Source: Vicinamibacterales bacterium
GTDB taxonomy: Bacteria > Acidobacteriota > Vicinamibacteria > Vicinamibacterales > UBA2999
Direction of reading: 5' to 3'
DNA length: 64,000 bases
Assembly (NCBI GenBank): GCA_035293405.1
Contig: DATDOE010000113.1
Coordinates: 28,263 to 92,262 of the forward strand
Part shown: in pieces, positions 153 through 63,564 of the stretch
How positions within the stretch are numbered: the first letter of the stretch is position 1
Layout of the letters: each line of letters opens with the position of its first letter
Made by a program: the position numbers and the translations under genes
Notes under the pieces: model-generated
What the model was told of the DNA's origin: nothing
Database searches by the model: none
What the model saw: only the letters and a program-made list of their open reading frames with translations

Positions 153-1151
153 ATGGCTGTCAGCACCCGCACAAAGCTGTCTCTCACCCGGCGCCCGAGG
201 CGGCTCCGCCGCACCGAAGCCATTCGGTCGCTCGTGCGCGAGACGCGACTCACACCCGACTGCTTCATCTACCCGCTGTTCGTCTGTGAAGGCCAGGGCG
301 TACGACGCGCTATCGGATCGATGCCTGGCGTGTATCAGCTGTCGGTGGACGAGGCGGTCAGGGAAGCGGCAGCGGCACAGGCCGACGGCGTGCCGGCCGT
401 GATCCTCTTCGGCCTTCCCGACGAGAAGGACCTGGAAGGCTCCGGCGCCGCCGATCCCGATGCGCCCGTGCAGTCGGCGGTCCGCGCGCTCAAGCGTGAG
501 GTCCGGGACCTCGTCGTGATGACCGATGTCTGCCTGTGCGAGTACACCTCCCACGGCCACTGCGGCATCGTCGACGGCGACGAGATCGTGAACGATGCCA
601 CGGTCGCCCAGCTCGCGCAGGCGGCGTTGTCTCATGCGGTCGCCGGCGCCGATTTCGTGGCACCGTCCGACATGATGGACGGGCGCGTCGCCGCGATCCG
701 CAAGACGCTCGACGACAAGGGCTTCGAGAACACCGGCATCCTGTCCTACGCGGCGAAGTACTGCTCGGGGTTCTACGGTCCGTTTCGTGAGGCTGCCGAC
801 TCGACGCCACAGTTCGGCGATCGGCGCAGCCACCAGATGGATCCGGCCAACGTCGAGGAAGCGCTGCGCGCGGTGGAGATCGACCTGGCGGAAGGCGCGG
901 ACATCGTGATGGTGAAACCGGCCCTCCCCTATCTCGACGTGCTGGCGAAGGTCAAAGAGCGCTTCGGTCAGCCAACCGCCGCGTATCACGTCAGCGGGGA
1001 ATACGCGATGCTCAAGGCCGCCGCCGAGCGCGGCTGGCTGGACGAGCCGCGGGTGATGATGGAGTCGCTGATCGGCATCAAGCGCGCCGGCGCCGACATG
1101 ATCGTCACCTACTATGCGCGAGAGGCTGCTCGTCTCCTCTCGCGCGTGTAA
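153..1151 (+). CDS. hemB: porphobilinogen synthase (delta-aminolevulinate dehydratase)
   Basis: ORF 87..1151. The ATG at 153 gives the N-terminus '[20 protein letters not shown]'. Cys-rich metal site '[14 protein letters not shown]' and '[12 protein letters not shown]' Lys context. hemL lies next door. Confidence 0.95.
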
Positions 1152-1241
1152 TTCAAAATGCGAAATGCAAAATGCAGGACGCGAGGGCCTTTGACTTGTC
1201 CGCCTGCCGTTTGTTTGCATTTTGAATTTTGAATTTTGAAT
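1151..1241. repeat. heptamer-array inverted repeat, ATGCAAA flavour (4+4 units)
   Basis: Left arm: attcaaa atgcgaa atgcaaa atgcagg (1151-1178). Right arm: tttgcat tttgaat tttgaat tttgaat (1214-1241). G+C-rich 35-nt spacer. Confidence 0.9.
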
Positions 1242-1254
1242 TGACTTCCCGTCC

Positions 1255-27882: not shown

Positions 27883-27885
27883 GCT

Positions 27886-27966
27886 GGTTCTTGGTTCCTG
27901 GTTGGTGGTTCCTGGAAGATGGTTTGCGTATTTCCTCTACGAACCATGAACCACGAACCACGAACC
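27886..27966. repeat. heptamer-array inverted repeat, GGTTCST flavour
   Basis: Left: ggttctt ggttcct ggttggt ggttcct (27886-27913). Right: acgaacc atgaacc acgaacc acgaacc (27939-27966). Fills the divergent intergenic region. Confidence 0.9.
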
Positions 27967-27985
27967 AACAGGTATACTCACAAGA

Positions 27986-28795
27986 ATGCCCGTCGATGTC
28001 GAGGCAAAGGTCATTCGCAACACGCGCCTCTCCGCTGACTACAACGTCATCGCCCTCGCTGCTCCCGAGATTGCCGCCGCGGTTGCTCCTGGCCAATTCG
28101 TGATGGTCAAGCCGGGCCGCGGCAACGATCCGCTGCTGCGCCGCCCGTTCTCCGTGTTCGAGATCCTGCGCACCAACGGCGGCGTCGAGGGCCTGACACT
28201 GCTCAGCAAGCGCGTCGGCGTGACGACCCGCATGCTGCTTGACGCCGTCGAAGGCGACATCGTGTCCTGCCTGGGCCCATTGGGAAGACCGTTCGTGCCG
28301 GTCGATCCGCCAGAGGAGGCGTGGATAGTGGCGGGAGGCGTGGGGCTCGCTCCGTTTGCGACACTCGCCGAGGCGTTGCGCGAGCGCGGCACACCAACCA
28401 CCTTGTTCTATGGTGCACGGTCGGGACGCGAGCTCTTCTACCTCGATTGGTTTTCGTCCCGCGGTGTCCGGCTGGTACTGGCCACCGAGGATGGAAGCTC
28501 AGGTGAACGCGGGCGTATCACCGTGCCGCTCGAGCGCGCCCTGCAGCAGACAAAGGGCAGCGCCATGATCTACGCCTGCGGTCCTGAACCGATGCTCGAA
28601 GCCGTCGCGCACATCTCAGGCAAGTACGGCCGGCGATCGCAGGTCTCGGTCGAGCGCGTGATGGGATGCGGAATGGGCGGGTGCTATAGCTGCGTCATTC
28701 CGATGAAGGACACCGGGGGCGGCCATCACTACGTCCGTTCGTGCATCGCTGGCCCGGTCTTCAGCGGTACAGATCTGGTATGGGAACATGACTAA
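27986..28795 (+). CDS. pyrK: dihydroorotate dehydrogenase (NAD+) electron-transfer subunit
   Basis: FAD/NAD-binding fold ('RPFSV', 'GGVGLAPF') and a C-terminal 2Fe-2S Cys cluster 'CGMGGCYSCV...VRSCIAGPVF'. Confidence 0.92.
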   Translation: MPVDVEAKVIRNTRLSADYNVIALAAPEIAAAVAPGQFVMVKPGRGNDPLLRRPFSVFEILRTNGGVEGLTLLSKRVGVTTRMLLDAVEGDIVSCLGPLGRPFVPVDPPEEAWIVAGGVGLAPFATLAEALRERGTPTTLFYGARSGRELFYLDWFSSRGVRLVLATEDGSSGERGRITVPLERALQQTKGSAMIYACGPEPMLEAVAHISGKYGRRSQVSVERVMGCGMGGCYSCVIPMKDTGGGHHYVRSCIAGPVFSGTDLVWEHD

Positions 28796-28936
28796 ACTCC
28801 CAACTCCCAATCCCGCTTCGCGCGCGAGCCAACTCCCAAGAAAGACGCAAGAAGGACAATTGGGAATCGGGAATTGGGAGTTGGCCCGGGTTCGGGTTGG
28901 GAGTTGGGAGTTAGATGGGGTTGGGAGTTGGGAATT
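28795..28936. repeat. heptamer-array inverted repeat, GGGAGTT/GGGAATT flavour
   Basis: Left: aactccc aactccc aatcccg ... aactccc. The long right arm is gggaatc gggaatt gggagtt ... gggagtt gggagtt ... gggagtt gggaatt (28862-28936). Confidence 0.9.
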
Positions 28937-28939
28937 GAC

Positions 28940-39948: not shown

Positions 39949-41526
39949 ATGGTGCAGCGGATTCTCGGCATCCTCAGTTGGGTCGGCGTCGCCCTGGTCT
40001 TCGGGGCGCTCGGGGTGAGGTTCGTCAAGCCGGAGTGGGATCAGTACGCGATCTATGCCGCCTGGGCAGGGCTCGCGCTCGTCCTGCTCTACACCATCGG
40101 ACAGTGGCGTGAGATCGTCGCCCACTTCCAGCGGCGGAACACCCGCTACGGCACGATCGCCAGCGTCAGCGTGATCGTCGTGCTCGGCATCGTGGTTGCC
40201 GCGAACTATCTGTCCGTGCGCCGCAACAAGCGGTGGGACCTGACGGAGAACAGGCAATACAGCCTTTCGGATCAGTCCACGAAGCTGTTGCAGGGCCTCC
40301 AGTCGCCGGTGAAGTTCATCGTCTTCGATCAGGATGTGAACTTCGACCGCTTCAGATCGCGGCTCGGCGCCTATCAATACGGCTCGGACAGAGTCGCGAT
40401 CGAGTACATCGACCCGGAGAAGGATCCCTCGAAGGCCGGCCCGTACAAGATCGAGGCGATCCCCACGATCGTGATCGAGTACATGGGCCGGACGCAGCGC
40501 TCGAACACGGACACCGAGCAGGATCTGACGAACGCGCTCATCAAACTGATCAATCCCCAGGAACGGAAGATCTACTTCCTCAGCGGGCATGGCGAGAAGG
40601 ATCCGGCCAACTCGGAGCGCACCGGCTACAGCGGGATCGCAGACGCGCTGAAGCAGGACAACTACCAGTTCGACAAGCTGGTGCTGGCGCAGACCAACGA
40701 GATTCCCAAGGACGCGAGCGTGCTCGTGATCGCCGGGCCGAAAACCGATCTGCTCGAATCGGAGGTGCCGATCCTCACGGAGTACCTGACGTCGCGCACG
40801 GGCAAGCTCCTCGTACTGCTGGACCCGACCGAAGACTTCAAGCCCGTGCCCATGCCGCGCATTATGGGACTGCTGAACGAATGGGGCATCAAAGCGACCG
40901 AGTCGGTGGTCGTCGATCTGAGCGGCCTCACACAGGTGGCCACGGTGCCCGTGGCGGGTCCACCGTACCCGGAGCACGCGATCACCAGGAACTTCGCGCT
41001 CTTCACGATGTTCCCGATGGCGCGTGCCATAACCGCGGAAACGGCCCCTCAGAAGCGGTCCGGTCAGACGTTCCTGCAGACGGCGCAGCGTAGCTGGGGG
41101 GAGATGTCGCTCGACGCACTCGCGAAGAGCCAGGCCACGCCTGAACCGGAGAAGGGCGACGTCCCTGGACCGGTGTCGATTGGCGTCGCCACGGCGGTGC
41201 CGGCGCCCACACCGGAGCCCGCGGCCAGCACGCAGAAGCCGGCGGACGAGGCGCCGAAGCCCGAAACACGTGTCGCGGCCATCGGCGACTCCGACTTCGC
41301 CGCCAACAACTACCTCGGCGTCCAGGGCAACCGCGATCTGTTCATGAACACGATGAACTGGCTGGCGCAGCAGGAAAACCTGATCGCCATCCGGCCACGC
41401 GACGCCTCCGACCGGCGGCTCACGCTCACTGCGAACAAGACTGCCGCCATCTTCTGGATGTCCATCTTCATCATCCCGGCGGCCGTCCTCAGTGCCGGCG
41501 CCTACACCTGGTGGCGGAGGCGATAG
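39949..41526 (+). CDS. GldG-like ABC-transporter auxiliary protein
   Basis: The ATG at 39949 gives 'MVQRILGILSWVG'. 'RWDLTENRQYSLSDQS' and a C-terminal TM. Follows the ABC-2 permease. Confidence 0.8.
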   Translation: MVQRILGILSWVGVALVFGALGVRFVKPEWDQYAIYAAWAGLALVLLYTIGQWREIVAHFQRRNTRYGTIASVSVIVVLGIVVAANYLSVRRNKRWDLTENRQYSLSDQSTKLLQGLQSPVKFIVFDQDVNFDRFRSRLGAYQYGSDRVAIEYIDPEKDPSKAGPYKIEAIPTIVIEYMGRTQRSNTDTEQDLTNALIKLINPQERKIYFLSGHGEKDPANSERTGYSGIADALKQDNYQFDKLVLAQTNEIPKDASVLVIAGPKTDLLESEVPILTEYLTSRTGKLLVLLDPTEDFKPVPMPRIMGLLNEWGIKATESVVVDLSGLTQVATVPVAGPPYPEHAITRNFALFTMFPMARAITAETAPQKRSGQTFLQTAQRSWGEMSLDALAKSQATPEPEKGDVPGPVSIGVATAVPAPTPEPAASTQKPADEAPKPETRVAAIGDSDFAANNYLGVQGNRDLFMNTMNWLAQQENLIAIRPRDASDRRLTLTANKTAAIFWMSIFIIPAAVLSAGAYTWWRRR

Positions 41527-41528
41527 CC

Positions 41529-42848
41529 ATGCGCGGGCTGTGGTCCACTCTCGGCATGGTCGTCGTGCTGGCCGGCCTGGTCGGCTACATCTACTTCGTC
41601 GATTCGAAAGGCGAACCAGGTACGCCCGAGGCCAAGGAGAAGGTTTTCGGCGGCACTCTCTCGACGACCGACATCGAAGAGGTGCAGATCACGCTGGCGA
41701 GCGGCGAGAACAGCCGTCTCCAGAAGATCGACGGCACCTGGCGACTCGTGGCGCCCTCTCCGGCGCCCGCCGACGAGAGCGAGTTGACGTCGATCACGAG
41801 CGGGCTCGCGTCCCTCGAGATGCAGCGCGTGGTCGCCGAGAACGCGAGCGACATGAAGCAGTACGGTCTCGACCCGCCCCGCGTCGACGTGTCCTTCAGG
41901 AGCAAAGGGCAGAAAGAGCTGCGACGAATCGCACTCGGCACGAAGACGCCGACCAGCGGAGACATGTACGCGCGCATTCCCGATCAGCAACGTGTGTTCC
42001 TGGTCTCGTCCTTCCTCGATACGACCCTCAACAAGACGCCGTTCGCGCTGCGCGACAAGACGATCCTGAAATTCGATCGCGAGAAGGTCGATGGCCTCGA
42101 GCTCGCTGCCGGGTCGACGGTCATTCAGCTGGCCAAGCGCGGGCAGGACTGGACGATCGTCAAACCGTTTGCCGCACGCGCGGAGTATGCGGCCGTCGAA
42201 GGCTCGCTCGAGCGACTCGGCTCCGCGCAGATGGTCGGGATCGTCGAGCCAGAAGCCACCGACCTCGCGAAGTACGGGCTGGACAAGCCTGCCGTGACGA
42301 TGACTGTGGCGACGGGCAGCTCGCGCGCGTCGTTGACGCTCGGCAAGACCGACAATGCGCTGGTATTCGCGAAGGACTCGTCGCGACCGATGGTGTTCAC
42401 CGTCGCGCCGACGCTGCGAGAGGACGTCTTCAAGCTGGGCTCGGAGTTCCGCCGCAAGGATCTGTTCGACGGGCGTTCGTTTACGGCCAATCGCGTCGAG
42501 CTCCGGCGCGGCAGTGAAACGATCGTGCTGGACAAGAGCAAGGGCAAGGACGGGAAAGACGTCTGGCGCAACGGGGCCGGCAAGGATGTCGAGGCCATGA
42601 AGGCCGACGACCTGCTGACGAAGCTGACCGGCCTTCGCGCCTCGTCATTCGAAGACCAGCCGCACGCATCGCTCAAGATGCCCGCGCTCGTCGTCACTCT
42701 GCGGTTCAACGACAACCGGATGGAGACGGTGACCTTCGGCCGTGCGGGAACCGATGCGTTCGCCAGCCGCGCGGACGAAACCGGATCGGCGACGATCGAA
42801 GGACCCGGGCTCGACGAGGCGATGAAGGCACTCGATGCCGTAAAGTAA
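41529..42848 (+). CDS. DUF4340-like protein
   Basis: N-terminal TM 'LWSTLGMVVVLAGLVGYIYF' followed by repeated beta-rich modules. This is the position normally held by DUF4340 after GldG-like genes. Confidence 0.7.
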   Translation: MRGLWSTLGMVVVLAGLVGYIYFVDSKGEPGTPEAKEKVFGGTLSTTDIEEVQITLASGENSRLQKIDGTWRLVAPSPAPADESELTSITSGLASLEMQRVVAENASDMKQYGLDPPRVDVSFRSKGQKELRRIALGTKTPTSGDMYARIPDQQRVFLVSSFLDTTLNKTPFALRDKTILKFDREKVDGLELAAGSTVIQLAKRGQDWTIVKPFAARAEYAAVEGSLERLGSAQMVGIVEPEATDLAKYGLDKPAVTMTVATGSSRASLTLGKTDNALVFAKDSSRPMVFTVAPTLREDVFKLGSEFRRKDLFDGRSFTANRVELRRGSETIVLDKSKGKDGKDVWRNGAGKDVEAMKADDLLTKLTGLRASSFEDQPHASLKMPALVVTLRFNDNRMETVTFGRAGTDAFASRADETGSATIEGPGLDEAMKALDAVK

Positions 42849-42946
42849 TGCAAGATTCAAAATGCAAAATGCAAAACGTCAACGTGCAGGCGTCGCGTCG
42901 CCGCGATGGCATGCCGTGTTTGCATTTTGCATTTTGCATTTCGCAT
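42848..42946. repeat. heptamer-array inverted repeat, ATGCAAA flavour (4+4 units)
   Basis: Left: atgcaag attcaaa atgcaaa atgcaaa (42848-42875). Right: tttgcat x3, then ttcgcat (42919-42946). 43-nt G+C-rich spacer. Confidence 0.9.
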
Positions 42947-44403
42947 TACTGAGTTGCGCTAAGGGACCTCCGCGCGTTCCCTCTCCCTCGGCGCGCGGGC
43001 CTTCAGAAGCACGCGCGGATCCTGTCACGCAACTTCAGCGACACATCCTGAGCGCAACGCGAATGGCGGGCGTGACCCGCGCCGCGTGGGGCATCGTGGT
43101 GCAGTCGCTCGATCGGAACGAGCGGCTCTTCGAGTTGAATCCACGAACGCTGCTGGTGCCGGCGTCGTCGGCCAAGCTCGTGGGCGTGGCAACCGCGGCC
43201 GAGGCGGTCGGATGGGACTACCGCTACGTGACGACACTCCTGGCCGCGGGCCCGGTCACAGACGGTGTCCTTCATGGAGATCTCATTGCCGTCGGCTCTG
43301 GCGATCCGTCGATCGGTGGACGGGGCGGTGACGATCTCTCCAGTTGGGTTGAGGCGCTCAGGTCGGCGGGCATCCAGAGGATCGAGGGCCGCATCATCGG
43401 CGACGACGATGCGCTCGAGGAGCCACGACCGCAGCTCTCGTGGGCATGGGACGACCTGGGGTACACGACTGGGGTGCTGTTCGGGGCGCTGAACGTTGCC
43501 GAGAACCGCACGGTGGCTACGATTGCACCCGGCGCGTCCGAGGGCACGCCGGCGACACTCCTCGCGGAGGCGCGGGCGGCCTATCGCGGATTGACGAGTC
43601 GCGTGCTGACCGGCCCGCGAGGCTCGACGCAACTCCTGTGGCCGGAACAGCGGCCCGGCGAGCCGGCCCTCACACTGGCGGGCTCGATCCCGACTGGCGC
43701 CCCGCCGGCTCAGATCGATATCTCGGTCGGCAATCCCACACTCTGGTTTGCGAGCGTGTTGCGGGACCGGCTCGTCCGCGATGGCATCGTGGTCACGGGC
43801 GACGCCTTTGACATCGATGATGTCGCGCCAACACCGGATCGTGCGAGCGCGACGGTGCTCTTCACGCACCGCTCACGCCCGCTGTCGGAGATCGTGCGAG
43901 CCCTGCTCAAGGACAGCATCAACCTGTACGGCGAGGCTGTCATGCGGCTCAATGCCCCACGCGACACGCTCGCGACCAACGATGCCGCGCTCGAGGGCCT
44001 GGGGAAACGGCTGGAATCGTGGGGCATTCCAACCGACAGCATCCAACTCGTCGATGGGTCCGGCCTGTCCCGCCGCGATGCGATCTCTCCGGACGCGCTT
44101 CTGCTGGTGCTTCGGCGGATGCACGATCCCACCGGCAAGTCGCCTTTCATGACCGGCCTGCCGATCGCCGGCGTTGACGGTTCGCTCAGCGGGCGGATGA
44201 ACGGCACGCCCGCGGACGCCAACGTCCGCGCGAAAACCGGCACCATGTCCAATATCCGCTCCCTCGCCGGCTACGCGACAACACGCGACGGGGAGCGGCT
44301 GGCGTTCGTGATCATGGTGAACAATTTCGAGGGGACCGGGCCCAGCGCCAACACCGCAATCGATGCGATCGCCGTGCGCCTTGCCTCATTTAGTCGAGAG
44401 TAG
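42862..44403 (+). CDS. dacB: D-alanyl-D-alanine carboxypeptidase/endopeptidase (PBP4, S13)
   Basis: 'LVPASSAKL' (SxxK), 'DGSGLSR' (SxN-like), 'KTGTM' (KTG). The N-terminus is encoded by the heptamer repeat. An alternative GTG start is at 42916. Confidence 0.85.
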   Translation: MQNAKRQRAGVASPRWHAVFAFCILHFALLSCAKGPPRVPSPSARGPSEARADPVTQLQRHILSATRMAGVTRAAWGIVVQSLDRNERLFELNPRTLLVPASSAKLVGVATAAEAVGWDYRYVTTLLAAGPVTDGVLHGDLIAVGSGDPSIGGRGGDDLSSWVEALRSAGIQRIEGRIIGDDDALEEPRPQLSWAWDDLGYTTGVLFGALNVAENRTVATIAPGASEGTPATLLAEARAAYRGLTSRVLTGPRGSTQLLWPEQRPGEPALTLAGSIPTGAPPAQIDISVGNPTLWFASVLRDRLVRDGIVVTGDAFDIDDVAPTPDRASATVLFTHRSRPLSEIVRALLKDSINLYGEAVMRLNAPRDTLATNDAALEGLGKRLESWGIPTDSIQLVDGSGLSRRDAISPDALLLVLRRMHDPTGKSPFMTGLPIAGVDGSLSGRMNGTPADANVRAKTGTMSNIRSLAGYATTRDGERLAFVIMVNNFEGTGPSANTAIDAIAVRLASFSRE

Positions 44404-47623: not shown

Positions 47624-47626
47624 TTC

Positions 47627-47709
47627 CGGGATTCGGGATCCGGGACTCGGGATCCGGCGGATTCGGTCGTTCACATTTCGAATCCCGAATCCCGAATCCC
47701 GAGTCCCGG
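47627..47709. repeat. heptamer-array inverted repeat, CGGGATT flavour
   Basis: Left: cgggatt cgggatc cgggact cgggatc cggcggatt cgg. Right: cgaatcc x3, then cgagtcc (47679-47706). Loop of about 12 nt. Confidence 0.9.
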
Positions 47710-51426: not shown

Positions 51427-51644
51427 CGGTCACTCCGGATCCCGGTGCACCGTCTCCATCGAAAACGCCGGTAGACACACCGCGATGTATTCTGCGCCGC
51501 CCAGAGGCGTGCTGTAGCGCACCCATTCTCCAGCCGCGGTCAACTACTGCCTGACCGGCGACCTGCGTATTCCTCGATGCGCTTCGGAGGCGTACCCGCA
51601 GCCTGAACAATGGTCGGAGTTTGAATAAGTCGGGGCATTCTTCT

Positions 51645-51722
51645 GGTTCCTGGTTCGTGGTTCGTGGTTGAAAAGTCGGGAGTTGGGAGTTGGGAGTTGG
51701 CTCGGAGATCGAGTTGGGAGTT
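51645..51722. repeat. two adjacent heptamer arrays of different flavour (GGTTCGT then GGGAGTT)
   Basis: ggttcct ggttcgt ggttcgt ggttgaa, then gggagtt x3, ggctcggagatcga, gttgggagtt. Confidence 0.9.
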
Positions 51723-57646: not shown

Positions 57647-57657
57647 GAACCTCTGAA

Positions 57658-57783
57658 ATTCAAAATGCAAAATGCAAAATGCAAACATCACGTCGTCGGC
57701 AGCAACGAGGCACAAGCGGATCGCTTGTCACACAAATGCTGCGAATGACTTTCTGTTTGAATTTTGAATTTTGCATTTTGAAT
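57658..57783. repeat. heptamer-array inverted repeat, ATGCAAA flavour (4+4 units)
   Basis: Left: attcaaa, then atgcaaa x3 (57658-57685). Right: tttgaat tttgaat tttgcat tttgaat (57756-57783). The 70-nt spacer holds its own hairpin, ACAAGCG-gat-CGCTTGT. Confidence 0.9.
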
Positions 57784-59144
57784 TACCCCATGGTCTCTTT
57801 GACCGCGTCGATAATCTCCTGGCCCCATCGTCGAATCTCGCCTTCGTCCTGGCCTTCGAGCATCACCCGGAGCAGAGGCTCGGTGCCGGAGTAGCGAACC
57901 AGCAGTCGTCCGCTCCCCGCCAGCCGCGCCTCGACCGATGACATCACGGCGGCGACTCTGGGGATGGTCTGGAGATCGACCTTCTGCGGCACGCGCAGGT
58001 TCATCAGTACCTGCGGGTAGGTCGTGAGGTCCGACGCCAGGTCGGCGAGCTCGCGGCCGGTCGCAGCCATGGTCCTCAGGACGTTCAGAGAGGTGGCCAG
58101 ACCGTCGCCGGTGAACAGGTAGTCCGAGAAGATGATGTGTCCCGATTGCTCGCCGCCGAGCGAGAGATCGCGGCGCATCATTTCTTCCATCACGTACTTG
58201 TCGCCGACGGACGTACGAAGCATTGCGATACCGGCCTTGTGCAGCGCGAGCTCCAGGCCGATGTTGCTCATGACCGTGGCCACGATGGCGTTGCCCTTCA
58301 GTCGTCCCTCGGCCTTCATGCGCAAGGCGCACATGAGCATCACGGCATCGCCGTCCACGACCGCGCCGTTCGCGTCGATGAAGATCGCGCGATCGCCATC
58401 TCCGTCGAACGCCACGCCGAGCGGGTACCGACCCTCGACGACAACTTTCGAGAGCAGCGTGGGATCGGTCGAGCCACAGCCCAGGTTGATGTTCCGGCCG
58501 TCCGGCTGACTCCCGATGTGATGCACGTCGAACCCGAGATCCTGGAACAGTCGCGGCGCCACCGTGGTGGTGGCGCCGTTGGCGCAGTCCACGGCGATGC
58601 GCATGCTGGCGGTCCGTGCGCCCTGGGGCAGGATCTCGCGCAAGTGTCCGATGTACTCGGACCGCAGATCGACTTGCTCGACCGCATCCGCGTCGCCGGC
58701 GGCAACGCTCCACGACCCGTCAGCGACGATCGCTTCGACACGCTGCTCGAGGGTTTCGGTGAACTTTTCGCCGGCGCCCGAGAACACTTTGATGCCGTTG
58801 TCCTCGAACGGATTGTGTGACGCCGAGAGGACCACGCCAGCCGTATAGCCCATGCGCGGTGTGAGGTAGGCGACGGCGGGCGTCGGAATGATCCCGGCGC
58901 TCGTGAGCGTTCCGCCCTGGCTCCGGATTCCAACGGCCAACTCGCGCTCGATCCACGTGCCGGACTCGCGCGTGTCACGGCCGGCCAGAAGCCTGATGAC
59001 GGGACGTGCACCGTCTCCTGAAGGCACCTCGTCATGCCGCAGCACGCGCACGAGCGCGGCGCCAAGCCGCCGGATGGTTGGAACATCCAGCGGAGGGTCT
59101 CCCGCCCTGCCGCGCACTCCGTCCGTGCCGAACAACCGCGCCAT
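57783..59144 (-). CDS. glmM: phosphoglucosamine mutase
   Basis: 'LFGTDGVRG', 'GVVLSASHNPFEDNGIK', 'AFDGDGDR', 'GGEQSGH'. Confidence 0.95.
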   Translation of the reverse strand: MARLFGTDGVRGRAGDPPLDVPTIRRLGAALVRVLRHDEVPSGDGARPVIRLLAGRDTRESGTWIERELAVGIRSQGGTLTSAGIIPTPAVAYLTPRMGYTAGVVLSASHNPFEDNGIKVFSGAGEKFTETLEQRVEAIVADGSWSVAAGDADAVEQVDLRSEYIGHLREILPQGARTASMRIAVDCANGATTTVAPRLFQDLGFDVHHIGSQPDGRNINLGCGSTDPTLLSKVVVEGRYPLGVAFDGDGDRAIFIDANGAVVDGDAVMLMCALRMKAEGRLKGNAIVATVMSNIGLELALHKAGIAMLRTSVGDKYVMEEMMRRDLSLGGEQSGHIIFSDYLFTGDGLATSLNVLRTMAATGRELADLASDLTTYPQVLMNLRVPQKVDLQTIPRVAAVMSSVEARLAGSGRLLVRYSGTEPLLRVMLEGQDEGEIRRWGQEIIDAVKETMG

Positions 59145-61510: not shown

Positions 61511-61528
61511 GAAGGAACACTACACCAA

Positions 61529-61632
61529 GTGCAAAGTGCAAAGTGGAAAGTGCAAAGTCCGTGAAAAGTCAAAAGTGCGAAGCAAGTGAGTACTTCTCAC
61601 TTACTTCGCACTTCACACTTCGTACTTCAAAC
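61529..61632. repeat. heptamer-array inverted repeat, GTGCAAA/TTCGCAC flavour
   Basis: Left: gtgcaaa gtgcaaa gtggaaa gtgcaaa (gtcc) gtgaaaa gtcaaaa gtgcgaa gcaagtgag. Loop: tact. Right: tctcac ttac ttcgcac ttcacac ttcgtac ttcaaac. Confidence 0.9.

Positions 61633-63564
<1,932 letters not shown>

Follow-up and report, generated by a model that had tools for sequence, protein, structure and literature searches.

A heptamer-repeat hairpin probably translated as the lipoprotein export signal of the PBP4-type gene dacB in Vicinamibacterales

Convergent pairs of heptameric simple sequence repeats (SSRs), GGGAATC in Xanthomonas and GGGGAYT in Nostoc, were described by Rehm et al. (2015; PMC4692102). 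Their arrays showed a preference for four units, were capable of forming stem-loops and occurred genome-wide, mostly in non-coding DNA near stop codons or upstream of open reading frames (ORFs); copies in coding regions were under-represented and were excluded from the transcript analysis, and translated copies or signal peptides were not described there. Rickettsia palindromic elements (RPEs; Ogata et al. 2000; reviewed in PMC10969869), of ~150 bp and with a conserved interior, are in-frame passenger insertions in surface loops. The enterobacterial RU-2 repeat forms part of the SignalP-predicted signal peptide of Y. pestis YPO1552, while the homologous proteins of other genera carry signals of unrelated sequence (Delihas 2007; PMC2759123). 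In Neisseria opa genes, CTCTT repeats lie in the leader-peptide region and are translated as its hydrophobic part; these are direct pentamers, and their high-rate change in copy number switches the frame and leads to phase variation (PMC3960869). Here we describe a heptamer hairpin at the start of dacB, a gene for a PBP4-type penicillin-binding protein, in a 64,000-nt stretch of DNA (hereafter "the window") from a soil bacterium of the Vicinamibacterales, Acidobacteriota (assembly GCA_035293405.1, contig DATDOE010000113.1, positions 28,263 to 92,262). The whole hairpin is probably translated as the export signal of a lipoprotein.

The element was a 107-bp hairpin (window positions 42844–42950) made of an inverted pair of (AAAATGC)n and (GCATTTT)n arrays. 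Its left, A-rich arm (42844–42875, + strand) was AGTAATGCAAGATTCAAAATGCAAAATGCAAA, that is AGTAATGC AAGATTC AAAATGC AAAATGC AAA, and its right, T-rich arm (42919–42950, + strand) was TTTGCATTTTGCATTTTGCATTTCGCATTACT, that is three units of TTTGCAT followed by TTCGCAT and TACT. Both arms were detected by an inverted-repeat search and by Tandem Repeats Finder (TRF) at period 7, as 4.3 copies of an AATGCAA-type heptamer on the left and 4.1 copies of a TTTGCAT-type heptamer on the right. The arms, of 32 nt each, were 91% complementary and 43 nt apart; sequence, fold and translation showed the spacer between them (42876–42918, + strand) to be unique and GC-rich, with a small stem of its own. The sequence AAAATGCAAAATGC, with at most one mismatch, had nine matches in the window, where shuffled sequence gave an expectation of 0.00. 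The predicted RNA fold of the hairpin region reached −57.1 kcal/mol (z = −5.0), and both an ATG at 42862 and a GTG at 42916 were base-paired in it. No consensus match to a sigma-70-like promoter or an intrinsic terminator was found in 42600–43100, and an Rfam search of the hairpin gave no family, only sub-threshold look-alikes of miRNA precursors (generic hairpins) at most. Small GC-rich palindromes were frequent inside the loops of such hairpins, in the spacer of the dacB hairpin, in those of loci L029/L030 and, as tccgcc-ttac-ggcgga, in genomes G008 and G009 (G, C and L are our handles for genomes, contigs and loci).

Upstream of the hairpin, a DUF4340 gene (41511–42848, + strand, 445 aa; Pfam PF14238, E = 4.1e-58) ended at a TAA (42846–42848) that is part of AGTAATGC, the outer end of the left arm; in relatives, too, dacB was preceded by a DUF4340 gene. 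The ORF starting at ATG 42862 (42862–42864, + strand), 13 nt 3′ of this stop, encoded the 513-aa precursor of a PBP4-type D-Ala-D-Ala carboxypeptidase/endopeptidase (dacB, Peptidase_S13; 42862–44403, + strand). The match to PF02113 (E = 6.5e-90) extended over residues 71–506 and profile positions 14–440 of 444, and the SxxK (SSAK) and KTG motifs were present. The translation began MQNAKRQRAGVASPRWHAVFAFCILHFALLSCAKGPP..., its first 32 codons being MQNAKRQRAGVASPRWHAVFAFCILHFALLSC, and the hairpin covered these codons up into the lipobox. From 42862 the left arm was read as M-Q-N-A-K, a start codon and the beginning of a charged n-region; the spacer as (K)RQRAGVASPRWHA(V), 13 residues that complete the n-region and include three Arg but nothing acidic; and the right arm as VFAFCILHFAL (FAFCILHFAL(L) from 42919), a hydrophobic h-region. 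The charge of the spacer peptide was set aside as evidence, since every frame of GC-rich DNA yields peptides rich in Arg. The lipobox was L-L-S-C (codons TTA CTG AGT TGC; 42946–42957, + strand), identified by translation, by its conserved Cys32 and by the rule given below.

The heptamer arms, the ORF and its translation had all been given in a preliminary description of this DNA and were confirmed, with two corrections. ATG 42862, reported there as the only in-frame ATG, was so upstream of the catalytic domain, but Met68 (ATG 43063) was also in frame, three residues before the Pfam S13 domain, and left no signal peptide. The element, said to encode the h-region and the lipobox, did encode VFAFCILHFAL and the first four lipobox bases (TTA and the C of CTG, the GCATTAC end of the element), but Ser and Cys32 (42952–42957) came from the flank. 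Two other ORFs ran across the hairpin, one of 34 aa (42848–42952, + strand; MQDSKCKMQNVNVQASRRRDGMPCLHFAFCISHY) from an ancestral-type TAATG and an antisense one of 77 aa (42706–42939, − strand; MQNAKCKHG...FCILHFESC); both were probably spurious by-products of the symmetric coding potential of the element. The TAATG at 42848 was rejected as a dacB start, being out of the dacB frame and ending at TGA 42950–42952 after 34 aa.

Orthologues were examined at 19 loci from genomes of the same genus and the same order and at 72 loci from public Vicinamibacterales metagenome-assembled genomes. An AAAATGC or AGAATGC hairpin was found at the DUF4340/dacB junction in at least 23 Vicinamibacterales genomes, and the right arms of the orthologues read (F/S)AFC(I/V)LHFA(L/F)L. 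The junction Cys-Ala-Lys/Arg followed the right arm in every element-bearing orthologue and also occurred in relatives without the element, among them other families of the order, e.g. MRRAWLPIACLVAAAAC followed by AQQ (another family of the order) and MTSRPYILALVVLAIDIAGC followed by AKT. At the same junction, outgroup families and some congeners had ordinary, non-periodic lipoprotein signals of 17–20 aa with a stop/start overlap (TAATG, ATGA). In the congeners G011 and G007 another repeat, caccgggtgtgatttcc..., replaced the left arm and the spacer, and the right-arm-derived h-regions GFCILHIAFAGC and SCIFQIAFTGC were kept, indicating that the coding constraint outlives loss of the hairpin. 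The right arm must be coding: the enzyme works outside the cytoplasm, and any other in-frame start would leave it with no export signal. With the Cys-Ala-Lys/Arg junction conserved with and without the element, its predicted translation as the h-region, as the preliminary description had it, is hardly in doubt.

A sister clade had heptamers of the AAAGGTC/AAAGGCA type at the same site; there the ancestral ATGA/GTGA overlap was in frame and the whole hairpin was read, e.g. as MTGSKVKGQGSKVRPRGLRAFALCLLTFDLLGC. Loci of this type (L031, L040, L045, L047, L057, L063, L067 and L080) read KVKGQGS... and ...FALCLLTFDL, and the clade retained an Asp, an unusual residue within an h-region, three or four positions ahead of the lipobox Cys. 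The dacB n-regions of congeners were also read through other palindromic repeats, caccgggtgtgatttcc...ggaaatcacacccggtg and a GC-rich unit resembling repetitive extragenic palindromes (REP), gaggccgacc...ggtcggcct. Such repeats were found at L010 (G011) and L008 (G007), ~100 nt before the lipobox, and at L007 (G015) and L012 (G006); one REP-like unit was nested within the loop of a heptamer hairpin. The dacB n-region thus seems to be a permissive landing site for repeats.

An in-frame ATG in the left arm, open to the right arm, was present at 22 of 23 element-bearing loci, against 12.7 expected. This expectation was derived from how many frames carry such an ATG, and it replaced an earlier null that required openness through the right arm and was too generous. 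ATG and Cys were separated by many different distances between 63 and 138 nt, every one divisible by three, though the spacers were unalignable between species. In L016 (G004) and L017/L085 (G016) dacB was split into two or three frames, and the left-arm ATG of G016 was out of frame; these split genes are pseudogenes or assembly errors in the repeat. Within the window, only ATG 42862 gave a charged n-region. A PROSITE-type lipoprotein rule was applied, with three conditions and a lipobox [LVI][ASTVI][GAS]C whose Cys lies at about position 15–35; the precursor from ATG 42862 passed it, with its Cys at position 32, K5/R6 present and the six residues ahead of the lipobox free of D, E, R and K. 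G014 had no in-frame ATG, GTG or TTG before the Cys other than the left-arm ATG, which gave a 26-aa signal, MQNSGTALRLWLAASAFCILLAAPGC; in G017 and G010 it was the only start supplying any Lys or Arg. The frame count, the sole start of G014 and the PROSITE-type rule together favour the start in the left arm that had been proposed in the preliminary description, and ATG 42862 is the likely start of dacB.

A start at GTG 42916 (42916–42918, + strand), at the foot of the right arm, would turn the left arm and the spacer into a 5′ untranslated region or an intercistronic hairpin. This codon was in frame, as had been described; a GTG or TTG occupied the equivalent place in G008, G009, G006, G010 and G017; and the stem sequesters the left-arm ATG, which has no Shine-Dalgarno sequence. 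The resulting signal, MFAFCILHFALLSC, would have 14 residues, no Lys or Arg and hence no charged n-region, and its Cys at position 14, failing two of the three PROSITE-type conditions. The equivalent GTG or TTG was absent from G014 and its relative L061, GTG 42916 was likewise paired in the fold, and the preservation of frame further upstream (22/23 vs 12.7, with spacer length changing in threes) would be unexplained. We regard this start as unlikely. Several points do weigh against translation of the whole hairpin from ATG 42862. No Shine-Dalgarno-like sequence was found upstream of ATG 42862, this ATG was paired within a very stable stem, and the h-region includes a His. Plausible GTG, TTG or ATG starts were present in the spacers of several orthologues (G008, G009, G006 and G013; e.g. 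MSALRRTSVFAFC... in G008/G009), so not every species needs the left-arm ATG.

The hairpin belonged to a family dispersed over the genome (G000; 7.58 Mb, 65% GC). TRF detected 1,296 period-7 arrays in the whole genome, 978 of them with at least 2.8 copies; the AAAATGC family with its AAAATTC, AATGCAG and AATTCAG variants comprised 144 arrays, which made up 63 hairpins. All 63 were built alike, with gtAAT[G/T]CA... four times (~29 nt), a unique spacer of 5–80 nt, and ...T[G/T][C/A]ATT four times ending in "ac". Neither a common internal sequence nor an evident target-site duplication was found among the 63 copies, indicating that the family is not a classical miniature inverted-repeat transposable element (MITE). 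Most copies were untranslated and placed before or after genes; in non-coding copies the G/T position of the heptamer was unmatched between the two arms. Because seven and three share no factor, (TTTGCAT)n encoded the cyclic peptide FAFCILH whichever of its three frames is read, and (AAAATGC)n likewise KMQNAKC. Because the hairpin is symmetric, the ATG/Lys arm came first and the hydrophobic arm second on either strand, as the antisense ORF at 42706–42939 illustrates. Two further hairpins of the family were found in the window (1150–1242 and 57656–57784), as were hairpins of other types (CTGGTTC, AACTCCC, TCCGGGA and AAGTGCA) at 27884–27967, 28795–28937, 47625–47708, 51643–51700 and 61527–61634.

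The genome was scanned for T-rich arms of the AAAATGC family whose open frames ran into long ORFs with high GC at third codon positions. About a dozen cases without a possible start after the arm were obtained, and Pfam assigned them to obligately exported families. These included a cytochrome c (N-terminus MQSAKAHLRIAVLLASCIFIFAFCILHFALPVVVYAQ followed by HE), an SBP_bac_5 lipoprotein (MQNSEFRIRTLSAFCILHFALLTSLTAC), an SCO1/CusF protein (MTRAVCILHFAFCMTTMAFA followed by AD) and, with N-termini from the same element family, a second SCO1 protein, a PSCyt/PSD protein and an amidase. The gene for BamA/Omp85 (G000, C98:106559–109513, + strand; locus L100, relatives L101–L120) had the signal MSNAEFRIQNAKGRGIFVAFVLHFAFCILHSDVSAQA followed by QV. 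Element-free congeners and other families had an ordinary BamA signal right after a conserved TGATG/TAGATG junction, e.g. MLRRMLPVCWLLAVCLLSYPGVANA followed by QVG, and in at least seven congeners the whole heptamer hairpin was read from a start at or near that junction. BamA is, on its predicted reading, an independent replicate of the dacB case in an essential gene. Arm-derived N-termini of G000 were located at C112:57459–57569(−), C122:59176–59238(−), C123:71617–71687(−), C63:120–217(+), C67:89549–89644(−), C67:85559–85645(−), C92:21348(+), C93:140433(+), C102:17627–17718(+) and C103:21512–21625(−). They belonged to about ten exported or probably exported proteins besides DacB and BamA, namely the cytochrome c, SBP_bac_5, two SCO1, PSCyt/PSD and amidase proteins just listed, a HEAT/cyclophilin lipoprotein, another lipoprotein and two ankyrin proteins, and no start codon followed the arm in them. 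The arrangement, noted at first for dacB alone, is no isolated case: it has been conserved in many genomes of the Vicinamibacterales, and within this genome it turns up again in BamA and further exported proteins.

One position of the heptamer is variable, reading TGCAT or TGAAT; according to the frame, TGAAT is read as Glu, as Asn or as the stop TGA. In this genome TGCAT and TGAAT were counted 42:1 in the 12 proposed signal-coding arms and 260:223 in the 132 others (Fisher p = 5e-10), with the reservation that the 12 arms had been chosen with an open frame, which itself removes some TGAAT (TGA in one frame of three). The open-frame requirement was estimated to lower TGAAT from 46% to ~36%, not to 2%. 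Among the dacB orthologues the counts were 61:2 in the right arm and 50:25 in the left arm of the same hairpins (p = 3e-6); a further reservation is that the frame and variant counts all come from related genomes, whose p-values overstate independence. The sequences themselves show the preservation of frame and the codon-level selection on the arms, as they do the anatomy of the hairpin and its conservation. Arms were slightly more complementary to their own partners than to arms of other species (22.9 vs 21.8 of 28 paired bases, permutation p = 0.0004), a modest and weak sign of arm co-evolution or concerted turnover, and too little to claim selection for the stem.

In a DacB tree, element-bearing genomes were found in every main clade of the genus, with the element-free G018 nested among them, suggesting that the dacB element is older than the genus and that a few lineages have since lost it or had it replaced. 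The heptamer periodicity might have grown in place from an ancestral signal sequence, by slippage and template switching and with no insertion. The unique spacer of every copy, with no conserved interior and no obvious target-site duplication, makes classical transposition not evident; a short form, MTCRSCVLALCLLTFDLLGC (L032), resembled the long hairpin forms of its clade; and the heptamer type varied between clades at the same site. Growth in place has to account, however, for the recurrence of the same heptamers, four-unit arms and gtAAT...ATTac ends at 63 unrelated sites of the genome, for the non-periodic signals of outgroups and some congeners, and for the same pattern of presence and absence at the BamA locus, and we consider it improbable. 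Origin by acquisition of a repeat is considered likely. The comparison of dacB 5′ ends that had been suggested in the preliminary description gave ordinary signals in element-free relatives and hairpin-derived ones in at least 23 genomes, and supports its proposal that a repeat had been exapted as a signal.

That the hairpin is purely non-coding (a terminator, attenuator or protein-binding site), its open frame accidental and dacB read from Met68, accords with the mostly untranslated state of the 63 family copies and with its place directly behind a stop codon, where such repeats usually lie, but is very improbable. Met68 was rejected as the start for want of a signal peptide: it would strip a periplasmic penicillin-binding protein of its export signal, conserved lipobox Cys and conserved linker. 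Dozens of species, moreover, have kept the frame open, variants giving Glu or a stop are avoided in the right arm, and neither an intrinsic-terminator or promoter consensus nor an Rfam family was found.

From the sequence we infer translation, start site, lipidation and coupling as follows. One copy of a genome-wide hairpin family would lie between the DUF4340 stop and the dacB lipobox and be translated whole. Initiation would occur at the left-arm ATG 42862; the A-rich arm and the GC-rich spacer would provide a Lys/Arg-rich n-region, MQNAKRQRAGVASPRWHA, the complementary T-rich arm the hydrophobic core VFAFCILHFAL, and the end of the element with its flank the lipobox L-L-S-C. The precursor would be exported, Cys32 lipidated by Lgt and the signal cut by LspA, yielding a lipid-anchored periplasmic PBP4; Lgt (PF01790) and LspA (PF01252) each had two above-cut-off matches in the genome. 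The hairpin would have replaced ordinary signal-peptide codons still present in relatives and have been inherited since before the genus diversified. Ribosomes ending the DUF4340 gene may open the stem, and initiation at ATG 42862 probably depends on such translational coupling, because the start is buried in a stem of −57 kcal/mol, 13 nt after the upstream stop, and because stop and start overlap in element-free relatives.

More tentatively, hairpins of A-rich and T-rich heptamers may act as signal-peptide cassettes that are complete in themselves and symmetric between the strands, an idea we consider possible though rather doubtful. The first arm would supply Met with Lys, Asn and Gln, and the second Phe, Ala, Cys, Ile and Leu in all three frames; the arms would suit either strand, because complementary codons have opposite hydropathy. 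If this holds, such hairpins could spread into tight stop/start junctions and repeatedly rewrite export signals, even that of the essential BamA, and could create a signal from nothing; the stem would then tie translation of the exported protein to ribosomes arriving from the upstream gene.

The locus is a natural experiment: start codon, charged head and hydrophobic core can all be supplied at once by a generic non-coding repeat, and the arrangement has been kept through the divergence of many genomes of an order, in envelope proteins such as PBP4 and BamA. It shows that an export signal can be specified by very little sequence information, and by what route new N-termini emerge. Starts of this kind will be misplaced, and their signal peptides missed, by gene callers that steer clear of repeats or strong hairpins; secretomes and lipoprotein sets predicted for Acidobacteriota, and for other phyla with heptamer hairpins, would be biased as a result. 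The TGCAT/TGAAT asymmetry offers a simple sequence test for translated copies of the repeat.

Literature searches found no heptamer hairpin that supplies a whole export signal, is conserved across an order, recurs in many exported proteins or bears signatures of selection on coding arms. Translated palindromic repeats are already known; the comparison suggests that the new feature here is the heptamer hairpin as a whole export signal. Like the SSR pairs of Xanthomonas and Nostoc, the 63 pairs described here are inverted, have four-unit arms of ~29 nt and occur in many copies, and the dacB element starts at a stop codon. Unlike them, the AAAATGC/GCATTTT unit is AT-rich and contains no G-tract, so a G-quadruplex cannot be its rationale. 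As with RPEs and intragenic MITEs, a dispersed palindromic repeat lies in frame within genes and is tolerated in a permissive part of the protein; unlike in RPEs, only the heptamer arms are shared, the middle is unique, and the peptide is predicted to form the n- and h-regions of an export signal. The opa repeats differ in that here an inverted pair with about four units per arm was in frame in 22 of 23 orthologues, which showed no sign of switching. There is also a likeness to RU-2 in YPO1552, where a mobile repeat of intergenic DNA, joined to an ORF, contributes part of a predicted signal. That case concerned a single hypothetical protein in closely related strains and included no selection test, whereas the hosts here are well defined (PBP4, BamA and cytochrome c, one of them essential), the arrangement is conserved across the order, and it carries signatures of selection in both frame and codon variants.

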